A stretch of 64,000 nucleotides of DNA from Escherichia phage APECc02, in the sequence record NC_041869.1; one strand, given 5' to 3'. The number at the start of each line of letters is the position of its first letter. Position 1 is the first letter of the stretch. Shown here piece by piece: positions 51,164 through 61,265 of the stretch. Under the pieces are notes generated by a model that saw only the letters and a program-made list of their open reading frames with translations, was not told where the DNA came from and made no database searches. A program made the translations under genes and the position numbers.

Positions 51164-51204
51164 ATTATAACCAACTTAACAAAACTTTGTCAACAATTAG
51201 TCAA
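51164..51204 (-). promoter_or_regulatory. sigma70-like promoter (minus strand), tandem -35 boxes TTGACT/TTGACA and -10 TATAAT
   Basis: read on minus strand: TTGACTAATTGTTGACA-N18-TATAAT; overlaps 3' end of nrdG. Confidence 0.55.
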
Positions 51205-51670
51205 CCTGAACCCAACCACCTGCTGCCTTTTTAAACATTCTTTGGTTATCACTACCTCTGAAGGGTTTTTTGGTTGGGTTATCTTTTTCGTACTTACCAT
51301 CCATAATGTAATCGACACTATCTTTAATGTAATCGGGAACCTCTTCAAACAAATACCCTGTGTACACCCAGATAGTTTTTGTGTTGCCGAAGTGTTCACG
51401 GATAGCGCTAATGATCGAGTACATACCCTCAATATTGTAAGGCGCTAAAGGTTCGCCACCGCATAATGTAACGCCAGTAATGTGTTTCGGCTCTATAGAG
51501 TGAAGTATACTCTCAATAGTGTCATTTGTTAACGGTTCCCCTTTAGCTGGTGACCAAACACTTTTGTTTTGGCAACCGACGCAGTGATGTGGGCAACCAG
51601 AACAGAACACCGTTGTCCTAATGCCTGGGCCGTCAACCATGCTACACTCTATAATATTAACAACATTCAT
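51197..51670 (-). CDS. nrdG: anaerobic ribonucleotide reductase activating protein (radical SAM)
   Basis: radical-SAM cluster CSGCPHHCVGC; adjacent to nrdD. Confidence 0.8.
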   Translation of the reverse strand: MNVVNIIECSMVDGPGIRTTVFCSGCPHHCVGCQNKSVWSPAKGEPLTNDTIESILHSIEPKHITGVTLCGGEPLAPYNIEGMYSIISAIREHFGNTKTIWVYTGYLFEEVPDYIKDSVDYIMDGKYEKDNPTKKPFRGSDNQRMFKKAAGGWVQVD

Positions 51671-51903
51671 TCCTTATCCTCTTTTAGGTAAGGATATTCA
51701 GGCCCACAATAAGCTCTATCCAAGAAAACAGCTTCTTCCCCTCTGGAATCAGTAGATCTATAATACCCATCACCATGGTAACTAACGAACCAGTGGCACC
51801 CATCATCGCTTTCTACTGTTGTGGCTCTGTCCGAATGAAAGATAATTTCGTAATCCTTACCGAATGTAAACCATCTGTTAGCTTTTACACAGACACCTAT
51901 CAT
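51667..51903 (-). CDS. hypothetical protein
   Basis: 78-aa ORF between nrdD and nrdG. Confidence 0.45.
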   Translation of the reverse strand: MIGVCVKANRWFTFGKDYEIIFHSDRATTVESDDGCHWFVSYHGDGYYRSTDSRGEEAVFLDRAYCGPEYPYLKEDKE

Positions 51904-52235
51904 AAGGAACCTCTCTTCTGTGGTGTGCTTCTATTCAAGATAAACCTATAAAAGTCCATTTGATGAAGCCGTATAACTTTTTATACTTACGCTTCAGTGC
52001 TAACAATTTTATCTTGATTTTCTTGATAGATTCCCGCATTTCGACCCCTTATGCTTATAAGTACTCCGCATCGCATTCAGGGCAATGCCAAATAAAATCG
52101 TCCAGTGCCTTGCACCAACGAAGATTGCAACGACAACCACACTTGCAAATTTTATAAATACCTTTAGACATACTGTACCCCCCTAGCTCACTGTGTGTCA
52201 ATAATATGCCACATCCTTGTGGCTTTTGTCAAGTA

Positions 52236-54359
52236 TCAGCAACTACAACTTCCATAGTGCTTAACTCGCTCGATAACTTCCGCTTGCTTACCTTTATTGT
52301 AAGGACGGGAGTTAGGACTGGAAAGGTATCCAGACACACGTCGAATTACACTGATCGTTCCCTCTTCATGGTTTCCACACTCTGGGCATACAAAGCCTTT
52401 AGCTGTTGCACTGAACTCACCAGAGAAACCACACTTGAGACATTTATCCACAGGTTGGTTAATACCAAAATACATAATATGTTTATACCCGAAGTCAACA
52501 AGAGCCTCTAAAGCATCCAGGTTGTTTTTCAGGTTAGGTGTCTCTACGTATCCAATGTTGCCACCAGAGGAGATCATAGCAAAACCTTCCTCATACTCCC
52601 ACTTATCAAAAGGAGAGCTATTTATCCACACTGGCTGATGGAAACTGTTGGTGAGATATTCATGCTCGTGCTTTAACACTTCTGGATATTCACGATCCAG
52701 ACAGGTTGCAGCTTTATAGCATAGACTCTCAGAAGGAGTGCCGTACAAGCTAAATGCTAGTCTACTTTCCTTCTTGTATCGCTCACAAGCATCTCTCATG
52801 TGCTGAAGGATTCCAAGAGCTAAAGCCTTGTCACCTTCTCTGCCCAAAATCTGACAGGTTTCATACACACCAATATACCCAATACTGATGGAAGCGTACC
52901 CGTCATAGAAGAGTTTATCAATACTTTCTTCGGGATCCAGGCGAGCAAGAGCGCCTTCACACCACATGATGGGGTTCTGCCCTGCCTTTGTTCCTTTTAG
53001 ACGGTTAACCCTTACAAGGTGAGCCTCGTATGCAAGATCCAAGTATTCGTCAAGAACTGCAAAGAAATCAACACCTTCCGTCTTAGCTTTTGCCGCAATC
53101 ATTGGCAGGTTAAGGCTAACAACGCCTAAGTTAAATCTGCCAAGGTATTTCTCCTCGCCTGTTTCCAAGTCATTGTATTTACTAAGAAAACTCCTGCAAC
53201 CCATGCTAGTTACTTTGCCATCTGTCGAGCCTGTCACTTTTCTATTTAGTGGTACAGATACGAAGTCAGGATAGATACGTTCTGCACAGCATTCCAGAGC
53301 TAATCGTTTCAAATCATAGTTAGGATCCCCAGGGTTCATGTTGACACCCTCTTCCAGGAAGAACAGCACTTTAGGGAACACAGGTGTGATACGTTCTTCA
53401 CCAAGACCCATTTTGTGGACTTTCAAGTAGTTTTTGGTAATCATTCTACCAAAGACCGAGGTATCTAGTCCTAAACTTAATGTGATGAATGGAGTTTGCC
53501 CGTTGACAGAGGTTAACGTATTGATTTGATAGAGCAAAGTCTGCATGCTGTCAAATACATCTTTATCTGTCATTTGCATTGCAACAGTTTCAGCATCCGG
53601 CAACCAATGTTCCTGGCAAAATTTAAGGTTCTTCTCATAGGTTGCTTCAGCATACTGTGCCAGATAATGATCAATATGGCTCATAGTCTGACCACCATAT
53701 TGAGCACTAGCTACCGCGCTAGAGATTTGACTAAGGATTGTTGTTGCAACCCCTATTGACTTCGGCTTACTGACATGGGCGTTGCCAATGTTGAATCCGT
53801 TTTCCAACATATCTGGATAATTTACCAAACAACAGTTTGTTAACGGGCTGATCAAGTAGTCAAGATCATGCACATGGATGAAGCCTTTATTGTGCTCTTC
53901 TGAAACACGGTCTGGCAGGATCTGTGTTGATGCAAGGTGTTTGCTAAGGATGCCTGCAAGCAGGTCACGATGAGTGTGTACATGATTAGTGGGCTTATTT
54001 GCGTTTTCTTTTGTAAATTCATCACAAGTTCGATCCAAGAAGCCACTAATATCTGCAAGCAGTTTTCCACCTGCCTCTCTGTTATTATCTCTTGTCTGTC
54101 TATACTGGATGTATTCTCTGGCTGCACATTTTAAACCCATATCCATAAGAGCATCTTCAACAAGGATATGGATATTTTTTACAGAGATCGTGCACTGGTC
54201 GGTTGGCAGATTGTTAGCAACAACTTCATTAACCGCACAAGCGATCCGGTAAGCTTCTTCTTCAGTATGCCCAGACTCAAGTAAGGCGGACTCTGCCGCC
54301 TTGATCACCTTAATTCCGTTATAGAACTCTTCTCTACCGTCCCGTTTTACAACTTTCAC
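52236..54359 (-). CDS. nrdD: anaerobic ribonucleoside-triphosphate reductase
   Basis: 707 aa; glycyl-radical motif RVSGY near C-terminus; C-terminal Cys cluster CLKCG...CPECG. Confidence 0.85.
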   Translation of the reverse strand: MKVVKRDGREEFYNGIKVIKAAESALLESGHTEEEAYRIACAVNEVVANNLPTDQCTISVKNIHILVEDALMDMGLKCAAREYIQYRQTRDNNREAGGKLLADISGFLDRTCDEFTKENANKPTNHVHTHRDLLAGILSKHLASTQILPDRVSEEHNKGFIHVHDLDYLISPLTNCCLVNYPDMLENGFNIGNAHVSKPKSIGVATTILSQISSAVASAQYGGQTMSHIDHYLAQYAEATYEKNLKFCQEHWLPDAETVAMQMTDKDVFDSMQTLLYQINTLTSVNGQTPFITLSLGLDTSVFGRMITKNYLKVHKMGLGEERITPVFPKVLFFLEEGVNMNPGDPNYDLKRLALECCAERIYPDFVSVPLNRKVTGSTDGKVTSMGCRSFLSKYNDLETGEEKYLGRFNLGVVSLNLPMIAAKAKTEGVDFFAVLDEYLDLAYEAHLVRVNRLKGTKAGQNPIMWCEGALARLDPEESIDKLFYDGYASISIGYIGVYETCQILGREGDKALALGILQHMRDACERYKKESRLAFSLYGTPSESLCYKAATCLDREYPEVLKHEHEYLTNSFHQPVWINSSPFDKWEYEEGFAMISSGGNIGYVETPNLKNNLDALEALVDFGYKHIMYFGINQPVDKCLKCGFSGEFSATAKGFVCPECGNHEEGTISVIRRVSGYLSSPNSRPYNKGKQAEVIERVKHYGSCSC

Positions 54360-54634
54360 TTTTTCTCTCCAAAACCATTCTTAACAAAAGAGATGAAATC
54401 GTCGGCACCGCCTATATGGATACTGTCAAGATTGCTTTCTAAGAAGATTTGCGGCAACGTTCTGGGGACAATTGGACTACACTTCTCAATAAGCTCTTCT
54501 TTTGTGTAGCCCTCGCCAAGTGTCTTATATACAAAAGGCAGACCTTTGCTGATTGCAAATTCTTTTGCTCTGACACAATGTGGGCAGTTATCCTTACCGT
54601 AAATGATGATGAAAAAAGATTTTTCGCAGCTCAT
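54356..54634 (-). CDS. glutaredoxin-like protein
   Basis: active site CPHC, TLPQIF and GGADD motifs; located between nrdB and nrdD. Confidence 0.7.
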   Translation of the reverse strand: MSCEKSFFIIIYGKDNCPHCVRAKEFAISKGLPFVYKTLGEGYTKEELIEKCSPIVPRTLPQIFLESNLDSIHIGGADDFISFVKNGFGEKK

Positions 54635-54637
54635 ATA

Positions 54638-55726
54638 TTAAAACTCCCAAATTTCTTCTTCAGCGTCGTTAACAGTTGTGTTGACGCGGTAGTCAGTGTT
54701 CGACATTTCTTGGTTCGCCGTCTGTTGCAATGAAGGTTTCATCCACACCTGCATAAACGGTAGCGGGTCCTTTGCTGGCGGCACAAAGTCTTTGTCGATG
54801 TCGTAGTAATCATAAATTGGTGAGCAGTTATAGTCAACCCACTCTTTAAGCAACGGTGAGTTAAGACCTATAATCGCTCTTCCTTCGCTGAAAATATAGT
54901 CACTCCAACCGTACTCTTTGGTTCGTACTTCATCAAGAATCTCTTTTAACTCCCCCTTTATCTCAAGGAAGCTTTTCTCCCATGCGGGATCATTAAGCAG
55001 GATATCAATGATGGCAAAATCACCTTTCGAATGTAGCATTTCGTCAAGCATGATTTTTTGAACAAGCTGCGCCACCTGAACAAAGATACCCTGTTCAGCT
55101 ACTGCGAAAGTGCATGCAAAACTTGCAATAAACTCAATACTTTCCAGAGCTAAAAGTGCAAAAAGCGCTCTAAGAATGCATTTCCGCACAACATCTTCTT
55201 CAACACTAGAAGGATCCAGTCGGTATTTTGCACCAATAACCTCTAGCTCTTGCATGTATTTGACAATAACACCGGATCTGCTCAGAACGTTTTGGTTTTC
55301 CTGAATCTCTTCTATAATCTCACGGGCATTGGGGAGGCATTGTCTAACAATCTCTGAGTAAGTTAGTGCGTGAAGAACTTCAATCTCCGACTGTTTCATC
55401 AATAGAGTGAAAAGCTCACTATTAGTGATGAACGGTGAAAAGAGGCAGATGATCGATCTTGCCGCAACGCTATCAGCCTCCCATTGCCACATCAAGGTCT
55501 GTACCATCACGTCATAAGTTGACTTTGAGCATGTTACAAAATCTGAAATAGATTGCGACAAATCCACTTCATCCTCTGCCCAATCTTGTTCTTTTTGTTT
55601 TTTGTATAGTTCAAACAGTTGTGGATATTTTTTGTTGATAGAGTCGTACATACCCATTTGCTGTCCTAAAAACAGCGGATAGTCACCAGTTTTATGAGCG
55701 GTGTTCTCAGCATTAAATACAGCCAT
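54638..55726 (-). CDS. nrdB: ribonucleotide reductase class I beta subunit
   Basis: 362 aa, ferritin-like; immediately downstream of nrdA. Confidence 0.75.
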   Translation of the reverse strand: MAVFNAENTAHKTGDYPLFLGQQMGMYDSINKKYPQLFELYKKQKEQDWAEDEVDLSQSISDFVTCSKSTYDVMVQTLMWQWEADSVAARSIICLFSPFITNSELFTLLMKQSEIEVLHALTYSEIVRQCLPNAREIIEEIQENQNVLSRSGVIVKYMQELEVIGAKYRLDPSSVEEDVVRKCILRALFALLALESIEFIASFACTFAVAEQGIFVQVAQLVQKIMLDEMLHSKGDFAIIDILLNDPAWEKSFLEIKGELKEILDEVRTKEYGWSDYIFSEGRAIIGLNSPLLKEWVDYNCSPIYDYYDIDKDFVPPAKDPLPFMQVWMKPSLQQTANQEMSNTDYRVNTTVNDAEEEIWEF

Positions 55727-55765
55727 TATTCTAACCTCTAAAATGGGGCCGAAGCCCCTTTAAAA

Positions 55766-58081
55766 TTATAGTGCACAACTTTCGCAATACGGATCTTCAA
55801 CTGAACTATCTGCAATCAAAGGATAGTTCTTTCTGGTTTCATCTTCAGCCTGTTTCTTGGCATGAAGTTCCTCTGCCAAGGAGTCACCAGCACCAACCCT
55901 AGAGTTTAAATAATACCATGTCTTCATCCCGAATTTAGTGGCACGGATAAGGTACCCTAGCTGCTCCTTCATTGAAATTTTACCATCTTTCAACTTGGTG
56001 TAGTCTATGTATAAATCCGCGCTGATTGCCTGACCTGTGAATTTTTGAATCACGGCATACATATCGATCATGTCGTTAGTATCAACGTCCCAAGCCGAAG
56101 TGTAATACTCTTTCAACTCATCATAGTCAGGAACGATAAACAGCACCTGCCCTTGTGGCGACTTTTTAAAGATAATGTGCTCACGGACAGGATAAACCCC
56201 GTTAGTGGTGTTTGTTGCCAGCGAAGAGCTTTCATTAGGCATATATGCTTCAAGAACGCTATTACGTAGCCCACCATTCTCAATGATTTCTTTACGTAAC
56301 CCTTCCCAATCCTGTTTAAGAGAAGGATCTTTCACCACGCTATCGACCTCTTTGTTATAGGTGTCGATTGGTAACCAACCTTCTGGATATTTTGTTTTAT
56401 GCATCCACTCGCAGACACCACGCTCTTTTGCCAACCGTAAACTTGCCTTATGCAAGCTGTAGCTGTGAAGTTCTGCAAGATCGTGAACGAGCTGTTTACT
56501 TTCAGGAGACCCGTAAGTAACCTTGTGGCTGGCAATAAAATGTGCAACATTGGTAAGGCCAACCCCGATGGATCTGCGTTTTTTAACTGTGCTTTCCATA
56601 TTTTCATACGGATATGTCATGATTTCCATAACATTGTCAATCATAAGCACCGTATAGTATGCAACATCCTCATACTCCTCTGGAGTAACCCTCCCAGCTA
56701 CAAGAGATGACAGGAAGCACAATGCAACCTCTCCATCATCAGCATCGTACTTGAAGATATTACGCATATCTGAATAGCCTTTTGTCGGGAGGGCTATTTC
56801 TGCACACAGGTTGCTTGAATAGATCACATCTTTAAAAGGTGTATGTCTATTCATCTCATCTGTCCAGTATACGTACAGCCTTCCCACCTCAGTGCGCTGC
56901 GTGATCAGTTCAACAGCAAGATCTCTAGCTCGGATCCATGTTTTAGGAATACTGTCATCTTTAGCAATACGATCAACCTCTGCATCAAACTCCTCCATAG
57001 ACATGGTGAAGATACCCTCATGCAGTTGAGGCGCGTGCTTATAAGAAACAAGCATCCAATCTAAATTCTTAGCCACACGGTTGATAAACGACCTATTAAT
57101 ACCGATGGAGTAGTCCATGGTGTTGATTCTTTTTGAAGCAACAGTCATAGGGTTTCTCAAACGGATTAGCTCATCAATCTGCGGGTCCAGTGCAAGGAAT
57201 GATACTGTTGCAGAACCACCACGTGATTGTTGTCTGTTCTCCTTAACCCCAGCATCAATACCTCGATAATATGGAATCTTACCCATGTGTTTAATAGTGT
57301 TACCACGAACACCATCGCCTGCAGATCTTGAGGATAAGTAGTAGCCGATACCTGCTTGATTAACCGTCATTGTGTACGCAACTTCACGTGCCACACCAAT
57401 AGATTTTGCTGTATCGTCAGCTTTTATTACACAACAAGATGCATACCCTGTCTTACCTGTGCGCAGCCCGTTTAAGTACGGTGTCGGGGCATTGATCTTT
57501 AAGTCGGACAGATACGTGTATAATTTTACAACATCGTTGATACGACGTTCTTTCGGCATATTCTTCATGACAGCCATTGCTATCCCCATAAACATCATCT
57601 GGGGAGATTCAAACAAGGTGTCTTTAAGAGTATCCTTGATCCCATATTTGTCGCGAAACTGTTTAAGGACTGCATAGCCATAACCGAGATCTTTACTGTG
57701 GTCAATAACAGCGTCTAAAGTGTTTAGCTCGGTAAAGCTATAGCCCATATCCTCCCAATACCCTTTCTCAACCATGGTATTGTAAAATGATGGTAAGGAA
57801 GGGATCTTTGTAAACCCTCCAAAAGCCTCTTTATAAATCTGACCAATAAGAACACGACCAGCCATACGGGAATGTGCTTCGTCTTTACGGCTAACACAGG
57901 AGTCTATGATAGCTTGGTTAACTTCTTTGGTTGTACATCCATCATACAGTCGTTTGTATGCATCCAGTGCAATGTGTGACCAATTGCCGTTACCGTCGTC
58001 ACCGAAAATAGCTGCCTTATTTAAACGTTCTGGATCGAATGCCACTTCACATCCGTTGCTTTTAATTACCTTGGTGATCAA
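55766..58081 (-). CDS. nrdA: ribonucleotide reductase class I alpha subunit
   Basis: 771 aa; active-site NLCAEIALPT; C-terminal Cys pair YCESCAL. Confidence 0.85.
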   Translation of the reverse strand: MITKVIKSNGCEVAFDPERLNKAAIFGDDGNGNWSHIALDAYKRLYDGCTTKEVNQAIIDSCVSRKDEAHSRMAGRVLIGQIYKEAFGGFTKIPSLPSFYNTMVEKGYWEDMGYSFTELNTLDAVIDHSKDLGYGYAVLKQFRDKYGIKDTLKDTLFESPQMMFMGIAMAVMKNMPKERRINDVVKLYTYLSDLKINAPTPYLNGLRTGKTGYASCCVIKADDTAKSIGVAREVAYTMTVNQAGIGYYLSSRSAGDGVRGNTIKHMGKIPYYRGIDAGVKENRQQSRGGSATVSFLALDPQIDELIRLRNPMTVASKRINTMDYSIGINRSFINRVAKNLDWMLVSYKHAPQLHEGIFTMSMEEFDAEVDRIAKDDSIPKTWIRARDLAVELITQRTEVGRLYVYWTDEMNRHTPFKDVIYSSNLCAEIALPTKGYSDMRNIFKYDADDGEVALCFLSSLVAGRVTPEEYEDVAYYTVLMIDNVMEIMTYPYENMESTVKKRRSIGVGLTNVAHFIASHKVTYGSPESKQLVHDLAELHSYSLHKASLRLAKERGVCEWMHKTKYPEGWLPIDTYNKEVDSVVKDPSLKQDWEGLRKEIIENGGLRNSVLEAYMPNESSSLATNTTNGVYPVREHIIFKKSPQGQVLFIVPDYDELKEYYTSAWDVDTNDMIDMYAVIQKFTGQAISADLYIDYTKLKDGKISMKEQLGYLIRATKFGMKTWYYLNSRVGAGDSLAEELHAKKQAEDETRKNYPLIADSSVEDPYCESCAL

Positions 58082-58308
58082 TTTGCTTCCTCCACTTCAT
58101 TAACGTATTTATCAAGGCAGGTATCAGTATCTTGCTGGATAAAGGTATCCTCTTCTACAGAGATATTTATAATTTTACCTGTATACTCGTCATAATAAAC
58201 ATCATCATACATTTTAATATCGTTTGTCAGGCCGTTGAACCAAAGCCAACCAACATATTCTGCCCGACTTGCAAAACCAAGATCCTTCCACTTGGAGTTA
58301 TGACTCAT
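58078..58308 (-). CDS. hypothetical protein
   Basis: ATG after GGTGGTGA; track ORF 58078..58386 trimmed. Confidence 0.45.
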   Translation of the reverse strand: MSHNSKWKDLGFASRAEYVGWLWFNGLTNDIKMYDDVYYDEYTGKIINISVEEDTFIQQDTDTCLDKYVNEVEEAN

Positions 58309-58318
58309 CTTCACCACC

Positions 58319-58792
58319 TTAGCTTTCAATACCGAATAATTTTTCCAGGCGATGCAGATCTTCAAAATTGAAAGGTTCATCAACAATATGAATATCTTCA
58401 GCCTTTTCAGATTGTTTTGTATACTTTCTTACATTAACACGATCCTCTACGGGGATATCATACGGGAGATCTTGAACAAGCATTGCCTCACCAGGTGCTT
58501 TATCTACATCTAAAATATCTACACCGTTATACATTTGTGGGTATCTAAAGTCTGCACGCATGACACCAGCAAATACATCTGCCTTTCGATAATGTGTTGG
58601 CTTATTTTTGCATCGAACGTTTTTTCCACGAAGAACATCAATACTTTTTAAATCAAACCCTACGGCAAAGAGTGCAGCTCGGAGACCGTTTCGTGTGCGA
58701 ACGTTAAACCCGGGGACGGTAGATAGAAAATCTAAAGTAACTGAAATAAATGTCTTTTTAGGAATCATAACATTACTCATATCTGTCTCCAT
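58319..58792 (-). CDS. hypothetical protein
   Basis: track ORF 58319..58819; start moved downstream of the predicted transcription start of the promoter at 58821-58849. Confidence 0.45.
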   Translation of the reverse strand: METDMSNVMIPKKTFISVTLDFLSTVPGFNVRTRNGLRAALFAVGFDLKSIDVLRGKNVRCKNKPTHYRKADVFAGVMRADFRYPQMYNGVDILDVDKAPGEAMLVQDLPYDIPVEDRVNVRKYTKQSEKAEDIHIVDEPFNFEDLHRLEKLFGIES

Positions 58793-58820
58793 TTCTGGCT
58801 CACCAACAAAGTGAGCCATT

Positions 58821-58849
58821 ATTATAGATTATCTAATACTATTAGTCAA
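58821..58849 (-). promoter_or_regulatory. consensus sigma70 promoter (minus strand) TTGACT-N17-TATAAT
   Basis: read on minus strand: -35 at 58849-58844, -10 at 58826-58821; lies between thyX stop and next gene. Confidence 0.65.
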
Positions 58850-58878
58850 CACAAAAGTTACCTATCGCTGTGATAGGA

Positions 58879-59862
58879 TTAACCTTTCACGAAGTGGTTA
58901 TTAAGCAGTTGTCTGTGCTGAACCCACCCACAAAAGTTGGCAGACCAGAATTTACCATCACGGTCTTGATGGGTTACACCTTCCTGCCAAGTACTGATGT
59001 CTTGTGTGATTTCACATGAAGACAGGTAGTAGTTTAAACGTTCCATTGCGTTATCGTGATCCATAGGTGTTGCCTGGTGCTCGTAAGGGCTTGCATGAAT
59101 ACGATCCCCACCAATCAATTTTTTAGCCACACTATCTGCCTTTTCAAACGTGCTGTCAATATTTCGATAAGATACTTGTGCACAGCAACTAGCACTGATA
59201 GACAGAGCTTCTTTAGTATCGAGAATGCAGAGCTTTCCTTCTGTGTCACGTACAGCGTAGTTAAACTCTCCGTCCAAATAAACGTGCTCTACATATGGGG
59301 TGTGCCATTGACCCGGTTTAAGGATTTCAGGAGTGCTATTCTCAAGAGCCTCCCACATACAACTAGCTAACATCTGAATCGTAGGATCCGCATCGTGCCA
59401 GCAACGGAGGTGGAAAAAATTATTCCACTCGGTGCTTGTTACAACTGTTTTCATGCGCTGGAACGGCTCCACTAAGCGGTTACATACTTGCTTATGGTAA
59501 CCAGCAAGGGCGAACTTCTCTGCATGCCAAGCGGCGTTTTTTGCAGCTTCTTTCCAAAACTCTTCAGGAGTTAGCTCCATGTCAGTGTACTCTACACGGA
59601 TCTTTTGATCGTGTTCCCCACCATCTTCCATTCCTCGCTTATTTACACCGAAGCGAACTGGCATTGCCGGATTCTCCACAATCTGTTGCAGCATCTTGCC
59701 GACAGGTACTGCACGGGAAGACATGGCGTTTCGGCTGAACACTCGGTGCGTCATAAGCTCTGAGTGAATAATTCGAGGATACTCTAGTTCAAAAGTGGTG
59801 ATACGCTTACCTTTCTCGGAAATGCTGTCAGCAATAATCTTTGCAGTGCACAGTTTTAGCAT
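58879..59862 (-). CDS. thyX: flavin-dependent thymidylate synthase
   Basis: ThyX signature HRVFSRNAMSSR (RHR...S.R). Confidence 0.8.
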   Translation of the reverse strand: MLKLCTAKIIADSISEKGKRITTFELEYPRIIHSELMTHRVFSRNAMSSRAVPVGKMLQQIVENPAMPVRFGVNKRGMEDGGEHDQKIRVEYTDMELTPEEFWKEAAKNAAWHAEKFALAGYHKQVCNRLVEPFQRMKTVVTSTEWNNFFHLRCWHDADPTIQMLASCMWEALENSTPEILKPGQWHTPYVEHVYLDGEFNYAVRDTEGKLCILDTKEALSISASCCAQVSYRNIDSTFEKADSVAKKLIGGDRIHASPYEHQATPMDHDNAMERLNYYLSSCEITQDISTWQEGVTHQDRDGKFWSANFCGWVQHRQLLNNHFVKG

Positions 59863-60062
59863 TATTTAGCTCTCCTTGTTTTAATTTTGGAAATTTCGTC
59901 TGGGTTTATGTTGGCCTTAAATGCAAGGTATCTGTTGAACATGTCAGAGCACATATCTTGGGTGATCCTAGAGGCATACACTAGCTTACCTCCTAGATCA
60001 TACACCTCTAGCCAGTCACCGTATCTGACTACAGGATCGCCACCTTTAGAACATCTGCCCAT
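59862..60062 (-). CDS. hypothetical protein
   Basis: 66-aa ORF. Confidence 0.45.
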   Translation of the reverse strand: MGRCSKGGDPVVRYGDWLEVYDLGGKLVYASRITQDMCSDMFNRYLAFKANINPDEISKIKTRRAK

Positions 60063-60063
60063 T

Positions 60064-60657
60064 TCAAATACCTTCTAAAAATTTTCCTATTTTATACCAG
60101 CTATTAGCGGTATAGTCAACACTGACCTTTAACTCCTCGAATTGCTCATAAGGCGTATCTTTTAGGATTTTAATAACTTCAGGTCGTGAAGCGAATTGGT
60201 TCAGGTATTCATGCCTGTCATCAATTATAACATCTACAGCCACATTTCCTTTGAAATGTGTGGCGTAGAATCCGTGGCCCTGGGTGTGATCGTCCAGATC
60301 CATAAAATCACTGGTCCAACGCTTTAAGAACCTTGATTTAGATGCAAGGTGACCTTTCTTGCATACCGAGATAAATGCAAGCTTGTGACCACGAGCCACC
60401 AAATCTTTCATAACCTCAATAGCCCCCTCTTCAGGCTTAAGGAAGTCGTAGAGGAACGGATCACTCCAGAAATCAAAAGGTCCTATGATGTTTTCTTTGG
60501 GACGATCAGGCCAATACTTTGACAGATCGTAATACATTAGCCCATTAGAAGGTTTAGCTACTGTCTTACTGGCTGGACCATACAAACGCTCCAACCACTC
60601 CCACCATGCTGTTCCTGAATCTACCAGTGTCAGATCTACATCAATTCCGATTAACAT
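60064..60657 (-). CDS. HAD-family 5'-(deoxy)nucleotidase
   Basis: HAD motif I DVDLT at residues 6-10; nucleotide-metabolism neighbourhood. Confidence 0.6.
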   Translation of the reverse strand: MLIGIDVDLTLVDSGTAWWEWLERLYGPASKTVAKPSNGLMYYDLSKYWPDRPKENIIGPFDFWSDPFLYDFLKPEEGAIEVMKDLVARGHKLAFISVCKKGHLASKSRFLKRWTSDFMDLDDHTQGHGFYATHFKGNVAVDVIIDDRHEYLNQFASRPEVIKILKDTPYEQFEELKVSVDYTANSWYKIGKFLEGI

Positions 60658-61265
60658 TCTTCTTGGGCCTCTTTAGCATCAATATACTTGCACACAATCT
60701 CCGATGCACACTCCCAAGGTGCACCTTCAGGGTTTACAACATCAAACTCAACCCCTTTTATTCCGTTCTTTTCCAGACTTAGATAGGTTCTGGAATCATT
60801 TCCCCAGTCATATCCTACACGGTGAATACGGAACAACAACAGATCTCCACCTGTGCTGTATGCGTACTCGCTAAGGCATGCCAGCTCCTCTTTGAATCCC
60901 CCATCGGAGTAAACAATAACCCCTTTACCTTCAGGGAAATCTTTCTTCAAAGATGCGACTGCGGCTTTACCGAAAGCATCTTCACCAAAGATAGGTTTAA
61001 TCAGATTTTCACTACAATGGATCATCCATTCTCGCGGAGAAACATGCTTGCCGTCTATCATTAAGAAAGGGCAAGGCTCTTCTTTGTAGTGACGGTCATA
61101 AAGTGCATTCCAGAGTTGAGGAGTTACACCAGCTGCCTTAATTGCCACACTGAAGAGCATTTCCTTAACCTCGCGGTGGTGTGAGTTAGGAATAGCTTCC
61201 AACAAGAGATCTGCAATGTGATCCTTACCACTGCTGGGTGGGGCGTTAAGAACAATAATATCCAT
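60651..61265 (-). CDS. deoxynucleoside monophosphate kinase
   Basis: P-loop NAPPSSGKD at N-terminus as in T4 gp1-type dNMP kinases. Confidence 0.65.
   Translation of the reverse strand: MDIIVLNAPPSSGKDHIADLLLEAIPNSHHREVKEMLFSVAIKAAGVTPQLWNALYDRHYKEEPCPFLMIDGKHVSPREWMIHCSENLIKPIFGEDAFGKAAVASLKKDFPEGKGVIVYSDGGFKEELACLSEYAYSTGGDLLLFRIHRVGYDWGNDSRTYLSLEKNGIKGVEFDVVNPEGAPWECASEIVCKYIDAKEAQEEC

Follow-up and report, generated by a model that had tools for sequence, protein, structure and literature searches.

The region between positions 51197 and 61265 of the window, which is the 64,000-nucleotide stretch of Escherichia phage APECc02 that was analysed, can be identified with high confidence as the conserved block of nucleotide-metabolism genes of a Vequintavirus, an rV5-like virulent E. 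coli myophage, and it lies inside a long minus-strand transcription unit corresponding to rV5 genes 82–163. Neither the gene cluster nor the promoter within it is new, both having been published for rV5 in 2013 (PMC3606486) and annotated in NC_011041. The sole unusual feature is the thymidylate synthase gene, whose product appears to be a rearranged, phage-specific form of the enzyme.

More than 100 sequenced phages share 97–98% identity with the window, and the whole 10 kb of the region matches 114 Vequintavirus records at 97–98%, with gene order and ORF lengths that are identical in rV5 and the BASEL phages. A T5-like phage, as the strong promoters and the Nrd set might suggest, was rejected on these matches. 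The rV5 authors had already named NrdAB, NrdDG and the thymidylate synthase as a dNTP-supply set (PMC3606486). Recognition of the cluster itself thus adds nothing beyond the rV5 publication and the annotations of more than 100 related genomes, and its value is that of a confirmed and correctly read annotation.

Gene content

The first-pass annotation described the region as a complete and contiguous module for aerobic and anaerobic dNTP synthesis. All eight of the genes that it named are intact on the minus strand, where the other features given below also lie, and their lengths are those found in rV5. The proposed gene identities also stand, those of NrdD, NrdG and NrdA by NCBIfam cut-offs and those of NrdB, glutaredoxin, ThyX and NT5C by Pfam gathering scores. 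Strict contiguity does not hold, as eight small ORFs are interspersed between the enzyme genes. The term complete was too strong. No dUTPase, dCMP deaminase or NDP kinase was found within the module, so the module would rely on the host both to provide dUMP and to carry out the final phosphorylation.

The small ORFs include a 66-aa ORF at 59862–60062 (rV5 gp101; PHROG 4903, E 6e-35), a 153-aa ORF at 58319–58780 which is the first gene 3' of the promoter (rV5 gp103; PHROG 5557, E 6e-75), and a 76-aa ORF at 58078–58308 (rV5 gp104; PHROG 5488, E 8e-42) whose stop codon overlaps the nrdA start (AAATTGA). Three more lie beyond nrdD: a 38-aa Cys-rich ORF at 52055–52171, 3' of that gene and annotated as hypothetical in BASEL phages (PHROG 20137, E 1e-30), a 34-aa ORF at 51935–52039 taken from the ORF list and equivalent to rV5 gp110, with the size and position seen in relatives, and a 78-aa ORF at 51667–51903 that overlaps the nrdG start (rV5 gp111; PHROG 3249, E 1e-26).

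The dNMP-kinase-like P-loop protein of 204 aa (60651–61265) is a homologue of rV5 gp099. Comparison with Pfam, NCBIfam and PDB sequences gave no match, and outside the PHROGs the protein has no sequence-level match to a characterised enzyme; a profile search against the PDB gave only weak adenylate-kinase P-loop matches. On structure comparison it shows a P-loop NMP-kinase fold with T4 gp1 as the nearest relative. The T4 enzyme phosphorylates dGMP, dTMP and hm-dCMP, and a T4-gp1-like kinase in this phage would likewise phosphorylate dNMPs. Annotators who list this protein as "hypothetical" or "P-loop NTPase" may wish to record that it is structurally nearest to the T4 dNMP kinase. The neighbouring gene (60064–60657) encodes a HAD-superfamily, NT5C-like 5'(3')-deoxyribonucleotidase of 197 aa, for which the PF06941 score is marginal (27.1 bits, cut-off 24.8). 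The DxDxT nucleophile motif is present as DVDLT at residues 6–10, with IIDD further on, and Table S3 of the rV5 paper (PMC3606486) names the corresponding protein, gp100, as a 5',3'-deoxyribonucleotidase. This phosphatase would be expected to dephosphorylate some (d)NMP.

Ribonucleotide reduction and oxygen

The class Ia ribonucleotide reductase is encoded by nrdA (55766–58081; alpha subunit, 771 aa) and nrdB (54638–55726; beta subunit, 362 aa). NrdA, which starts at a TTG codon after GGAGGA, scores 499.7 bits against TIGR02506 (cut-off 341), with the Pfam barrel domain at E 2e-100, and it retains the C-terminal redox Cys pair (CESC, in CESCAL); the Pfam ATP-cone was not detected in it. NrdB scores 104 bits against Pfam Ribonuc_red_sm (cut-off 33.6) and, with the NCBIfam class Ia equivalog NF006576, 150.6 bits (E 5e-44), which is under the cut-off of 346. 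Its translation carries the di-iron and radical-Tyr motifs ExxHxxxY (EVLHALTY) and ExxH (EMLH), which we take to hold the ligand and tyrosine residues of E. coli R2. A glutaredoxin of 92 aa follows (54356–54634; Pfam PF00462, 34 bits, cut-off 22.9), with a CPHC active site instead of the usual CPYC; it matches a GrxA-family model at E 4e-14 and falls under the cut-offs of the GrxA equivalog models.

The class III anaerobic ribonucleoside-triphosphate reductase, NrdD (52236–54359; 707 aa), is full-length by both NF006732 (825.4 bits, cut-off 657) and TIGR02487 (534.7 bits, cut-off 326). It comprises the Pfam domains NRDD, Gly_radical (E 3e-23) and ATP-cone, and carries the glycyl-radical motif RRVSGY and a Cys4 zinc site (CLKC...CPEC). 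NrdG, its radical-SAM activase (51197–51670; 157 aa), scores 148.1 bits against TIGR02491 (cut-off 126.1), matches Pfam Fer4_12 and Radical_SAM, and contains the iron-sulfur cluster motif CPHHCVGC (CxxxCxxC). The GTG start of nrdD overlaps the glutaredoxin stop codon and, as the TTG start of nrdA similarly overlaps the stop of the preceding gene, the arrangement suggests that both reductase genes may be translationally coupled to the genes before them.

NrdAB with the phage glutaredoxin would reduce NDPs when oxygen is present, and NrdD, activated by NrdG, would reduce NTPs when it is absent. The occurrence of full-length NrdD and NrdG, both above curated thresholds, fits an oxygen-independent dNTP supply. 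The use of ThyX rather than ThyA had also been taken as a sign of anaerobic growth, and it carries no information on this point. Oxygen is required by neither enzyme, and O2 oxidises the reduced flavin of ThyX. The choice of ThyX is therefore silent on anaerobic growth, and the argument rests on NrdDG alone.

E. coli encodes its own NrdDG and, since the host can supply these enzymes, the phage copies could be ballast that the phage can do without, or targets of mobile elements, rather than an anaerobic adaptation. In relatives homing endonuclease genes do interrupt or follow nrdD, but in the one such relative that was inspected the annotation joins the parts of the interrupted nrdD into an intact coding sequence. 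Moreover, both genes are full-length here, retain all of their hallmark motifs and score above the equivalog cut-offs, and the pair has been kept across more than 100 Vequintavirus genomes. We consider this alternative unlikely and favour a role for NrdDG in dNTP supply when oxygen is absent. Paired aerobic and anaerobic reductases have been noted previously for phages RB43, RB49, RB69 and rV5 (PMC3606486).

Promoters and transcription

A sigma-70-type promoter, TTGACT-N17-TATAAT, was found by sequence reading and a consensus scan at 58821–58849. The TTGACT hexamer occupies 58849–58844 and TATAAT occupies 58826–58821, within the gap 3' of the thyX stop codon (58879), and the site therefore lies where it had been placed, between thyX and the next gene. 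It had been called perfect, but 11 of the 12 consensus positions match, the consensus −35 hexamer being TTGACA. The same site was chosen independently with MEME in the rV5 study, where it appears as P107 among 33 predicted promoters (Kropinski et al. 2013, PMC3606486), and NC_011041 carries it as a regulatory feature under the GenBank label 'P106'.

The window contains 19 sites that match at least 11 of the 12 positions, against 2.1 ± 1.4 expected from Markov-chain shuffles, a ninefold excess, and all 19 are co-oriented with the local genes. About one in nine individual strong sites could be spurious, and the class as a whole stands far above chance. The promoter at 58849–58821 is thus probably real but not special, a predicted site that is one of 19 of its kind. 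That it is instead a chance match, with the genes 3' of thyX transcribed solely by read-through from upstream promoters, seems to us distinctly improbable. In favour of a chance match, chance alone would account for about two of the 19, a looser scan of the region at 9 of 12 positions gave no excess (32 sites found, 32.4 expected), and literature searches found no usable Vequintavirus data on transcriptomes, transcription starts or expression. Against a chance match stand, besides the excess, the common orientation and the MEME result, the location of the site in an intergenic gap, of which there are few, straight after a hairpin, and the sensible spacing of about 35 nt between the expected transcription start and a GGAGA-ATG translation start. 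Conservation was rejected as evidence for the promoter, because every relative that aligns at the intergenic region shows 94% identity or more, and phages at a greater distance do not align there.

Translation of the next gene probably begins at ATG 58780. The TATAAT hexamer lies 41 nt upstream on the same strand, its 17-nt spacing from the −35 hexamer falls within the range 16–18, and GGAGA occurs five nt before the ATG. The alternative ATG at 58819 is one base past the −10 hexamer and so cannot be present on a transcript from the P107-equivalent promoter. The same 153-aa form is annotated in rV5; annotators may prefer it to the 166-aa form given in some records, whose start precedes the expected transcription start.

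Two further elements flank this promoter. A weak terminator-like hairpin, detected by the consensus scan right after the thyX stop codon (58861–58877), has a 6-bp stem, a 5-nt loop and the tail TAACTTTTGT, and it is absent from the terminator list of the rV5 paper (PMC3606486). A perfect 8-bp inverted repeat, TGGCTCAC-N7-GTGAGCCA (58796–58818), spans the expected transcription start. A shared operator was considered for the repeat and rejected, since none of the other 18 promoters has these half-sites nearby, and a stem-loop in the 5'-UTR is the more likely interpretation. Several of the other promoters carry unrelated 5'-UTR hairpins.

Additional signals occur along the block. A promoter-like site equivalent to rV5 P105, TTGACT-17-TATAAA with a TG extended −10 element, is located inside the HAD gene at its 3' end (60092–60119); at 60119–60092 it shows one mismatch to the published P105, with 0 matches expected by chance. 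Just 3' of nrdG, the sequence TTGACA-N18-TATAAT (51164–51193) matches the consensus at all 12 positions and is predicted to drive the next genes; it is P118 of rV5, listed both in the rV5 paper (PMC3606486) and in GenBank. The gap between nrdA and nrdB holds, on reading the sequence, the hairpin GGGGCTTCGGCCCC followed by ATTTT (55745–55758), equivalent to rV5 terminator t109, for which −14.2 kcal/mol is given in Table S4 of that paper (PMC3606486). We propose that host sigma-70 RNA polymerase would transcribe the block from several near-consensus promoters spread along the unit. The P107 equivalent would re-initiate transcription past thyX and drive two small ORFs and then nrdA, and read-through of the weak t109 hairpin would extend transcripts into nrdB, the glutaredoxin gene, nrdD and onward.

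A possibly rearranged ThyX-like thymidylate synthase

The gene at 58879–59862 encodes a putative ThyX-like, flavin-dependent thymidylate synthase of 327 aa in a long, apparently rearranged form (rV5 gp102). It scores 37 bits against Pfam PF02511 (cut-off 24.8), over profile positions 60–191 only, and its 38.8 bits against the TIGR02170 equivalog are under the cut-off of 87.9; a single-sequence search against PDB sequences gave no matches. A structure-based check nevertheless found the ThyX three-dimensional fold. In place of the signature RHRxxSxxxxSxR the protein carries THRVFSRNAMSSR, with the first R replaced by T (THR) and the other positions kept, and this T is invariant in 30 family members.

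Several results suggest that the N-terminal FAD-binding module of canonical ThyX lies near the C-terminus of the phage protein, in the manner of a circular permutation. With hhalign, phage residues of about 200–288 aligned with canonical residues 1–90 (P 0.0009–0.0024), while phage residues 15–198 aligned with canonical residues of about 55–215. When residues 186–266 were moved before the core, the Pfam match reached profile positions 13–16, and the same re-ordering gained 6–9.5 bits over reversed or shuffled controls for four of four sequences. The C-terminal 143 aa alone gave no Pfam Thy1 match, and the case for the rearrangement is therefore built on the profile-profile alignment and the controlled re-ordering.

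The form occurs in 1034 phage records, and clustering at 50% identity gives about 2000 groups. Some versions are tandem fusions of double length (about 640 aa), and the C-terminal tail of about 60 aa bears a second, degenerate W-x-Q-H-R-Q element. These proteins may constitute a large and apparently phage-borne ThyX clade, defined by a permuted fold with the FAD module (HxSPxEH) behind the core, by THR, by the tail of about 60 aa and by tandem fusions, a proposal that we advance tentatively and to which we give slightly less than an even chance. Were it true, it would account for the low scores that standard ThyX models give to these phage proteins. Literature searches for permuted ThyX and for ThyX in ICP1 returned nothing relevant, the matches to "permut" referring to circularly permuted genomes. 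If real and undescribed, the form would add a structural variant to those known for ThyX, with possible differences in active-site assembly or oligomeric state and possibly altered chemistry. Humans lack ThyX, which is under study as a target for antibacterial agents, and a natural permuted version would therefore be informative on how a multi-subunit active site is assembled.

A ThyX-type flavin enzyme would make dTMP from dUMP without a dihydrofolate reductase. That the protein has another substrate or product, for example as a UMP/dUMP methylase like PolB or as a maker of modified pyrimidines, so that the module would not be a simple supply of the four dNTPs, is in our view very unlikely, given that the counterparts of residues that we take to be H53, T55, E58, H59, S88, R90, R147 and R174 of the T. 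maritima enzyme are conserved in the family, that no other annotated thymidylate synthase occurs in the rV5 regions inspected, and that the Vequintavirinae are exceptionally susceptible to restriction-modification systems, rV5 DNA being cut by XbaI with no hypermodification apparent, which argues against hypermodified DNA and for plain dTMP synthesis.

Relationship to known systems

The closest known system is that of rV5 (NC_011041; Kropinski et al. 2013, Virol J 10:76, PMC3606486), in which gp099–gp112 comprise the same genes in the same order, with the same ORF lengths and 97% nucleotide identity. The two regions show point differences only. The rV5 genome likewise has terminator t109 and promoters P105, P107 and P118, and the P107 sequence is the same as that of the promoter found here except for one spacer base. 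The rV5 annotation leaves the 204-aa protein hypothetical, whereas the structure comparison presented here supports a T4-gp1-like dNMP kinase.

Phage T4 possesses NrdAB, NrdC, NrdDG, Td and the gp1 dNMP kinase, and it makes thymidylate with a ThyA-type enzyme (Td), in contrast to the ThyX-type enzyme of this region. T4 also encodes its own dihydrofolate reductase, dCMP hydroxymethylase, dCTPase and dCMP deaminase, and its precursor genes are scattered in the genome. The present region lacks a dihydrofolate reductase and dCMP-modifying enzymes, has an extra NT5C-like phosphatase, and its genes are clustered.

Canonical ThyX proteins, exemplified by those of Thermotoga maritima (TM0449), PBCV-1 (A674R) and M. 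tuberculosis, are about 220 aa long, compared with 327 aa for the phage form. They begin with a segment of two strands and two helices that carries HxxPFEH; in the phage form the corresponding segment appears to lie at about residues 186–266, behind the core. The phage protein differs further in having THR for RHR and a C-terminal extension of about 60 aa.

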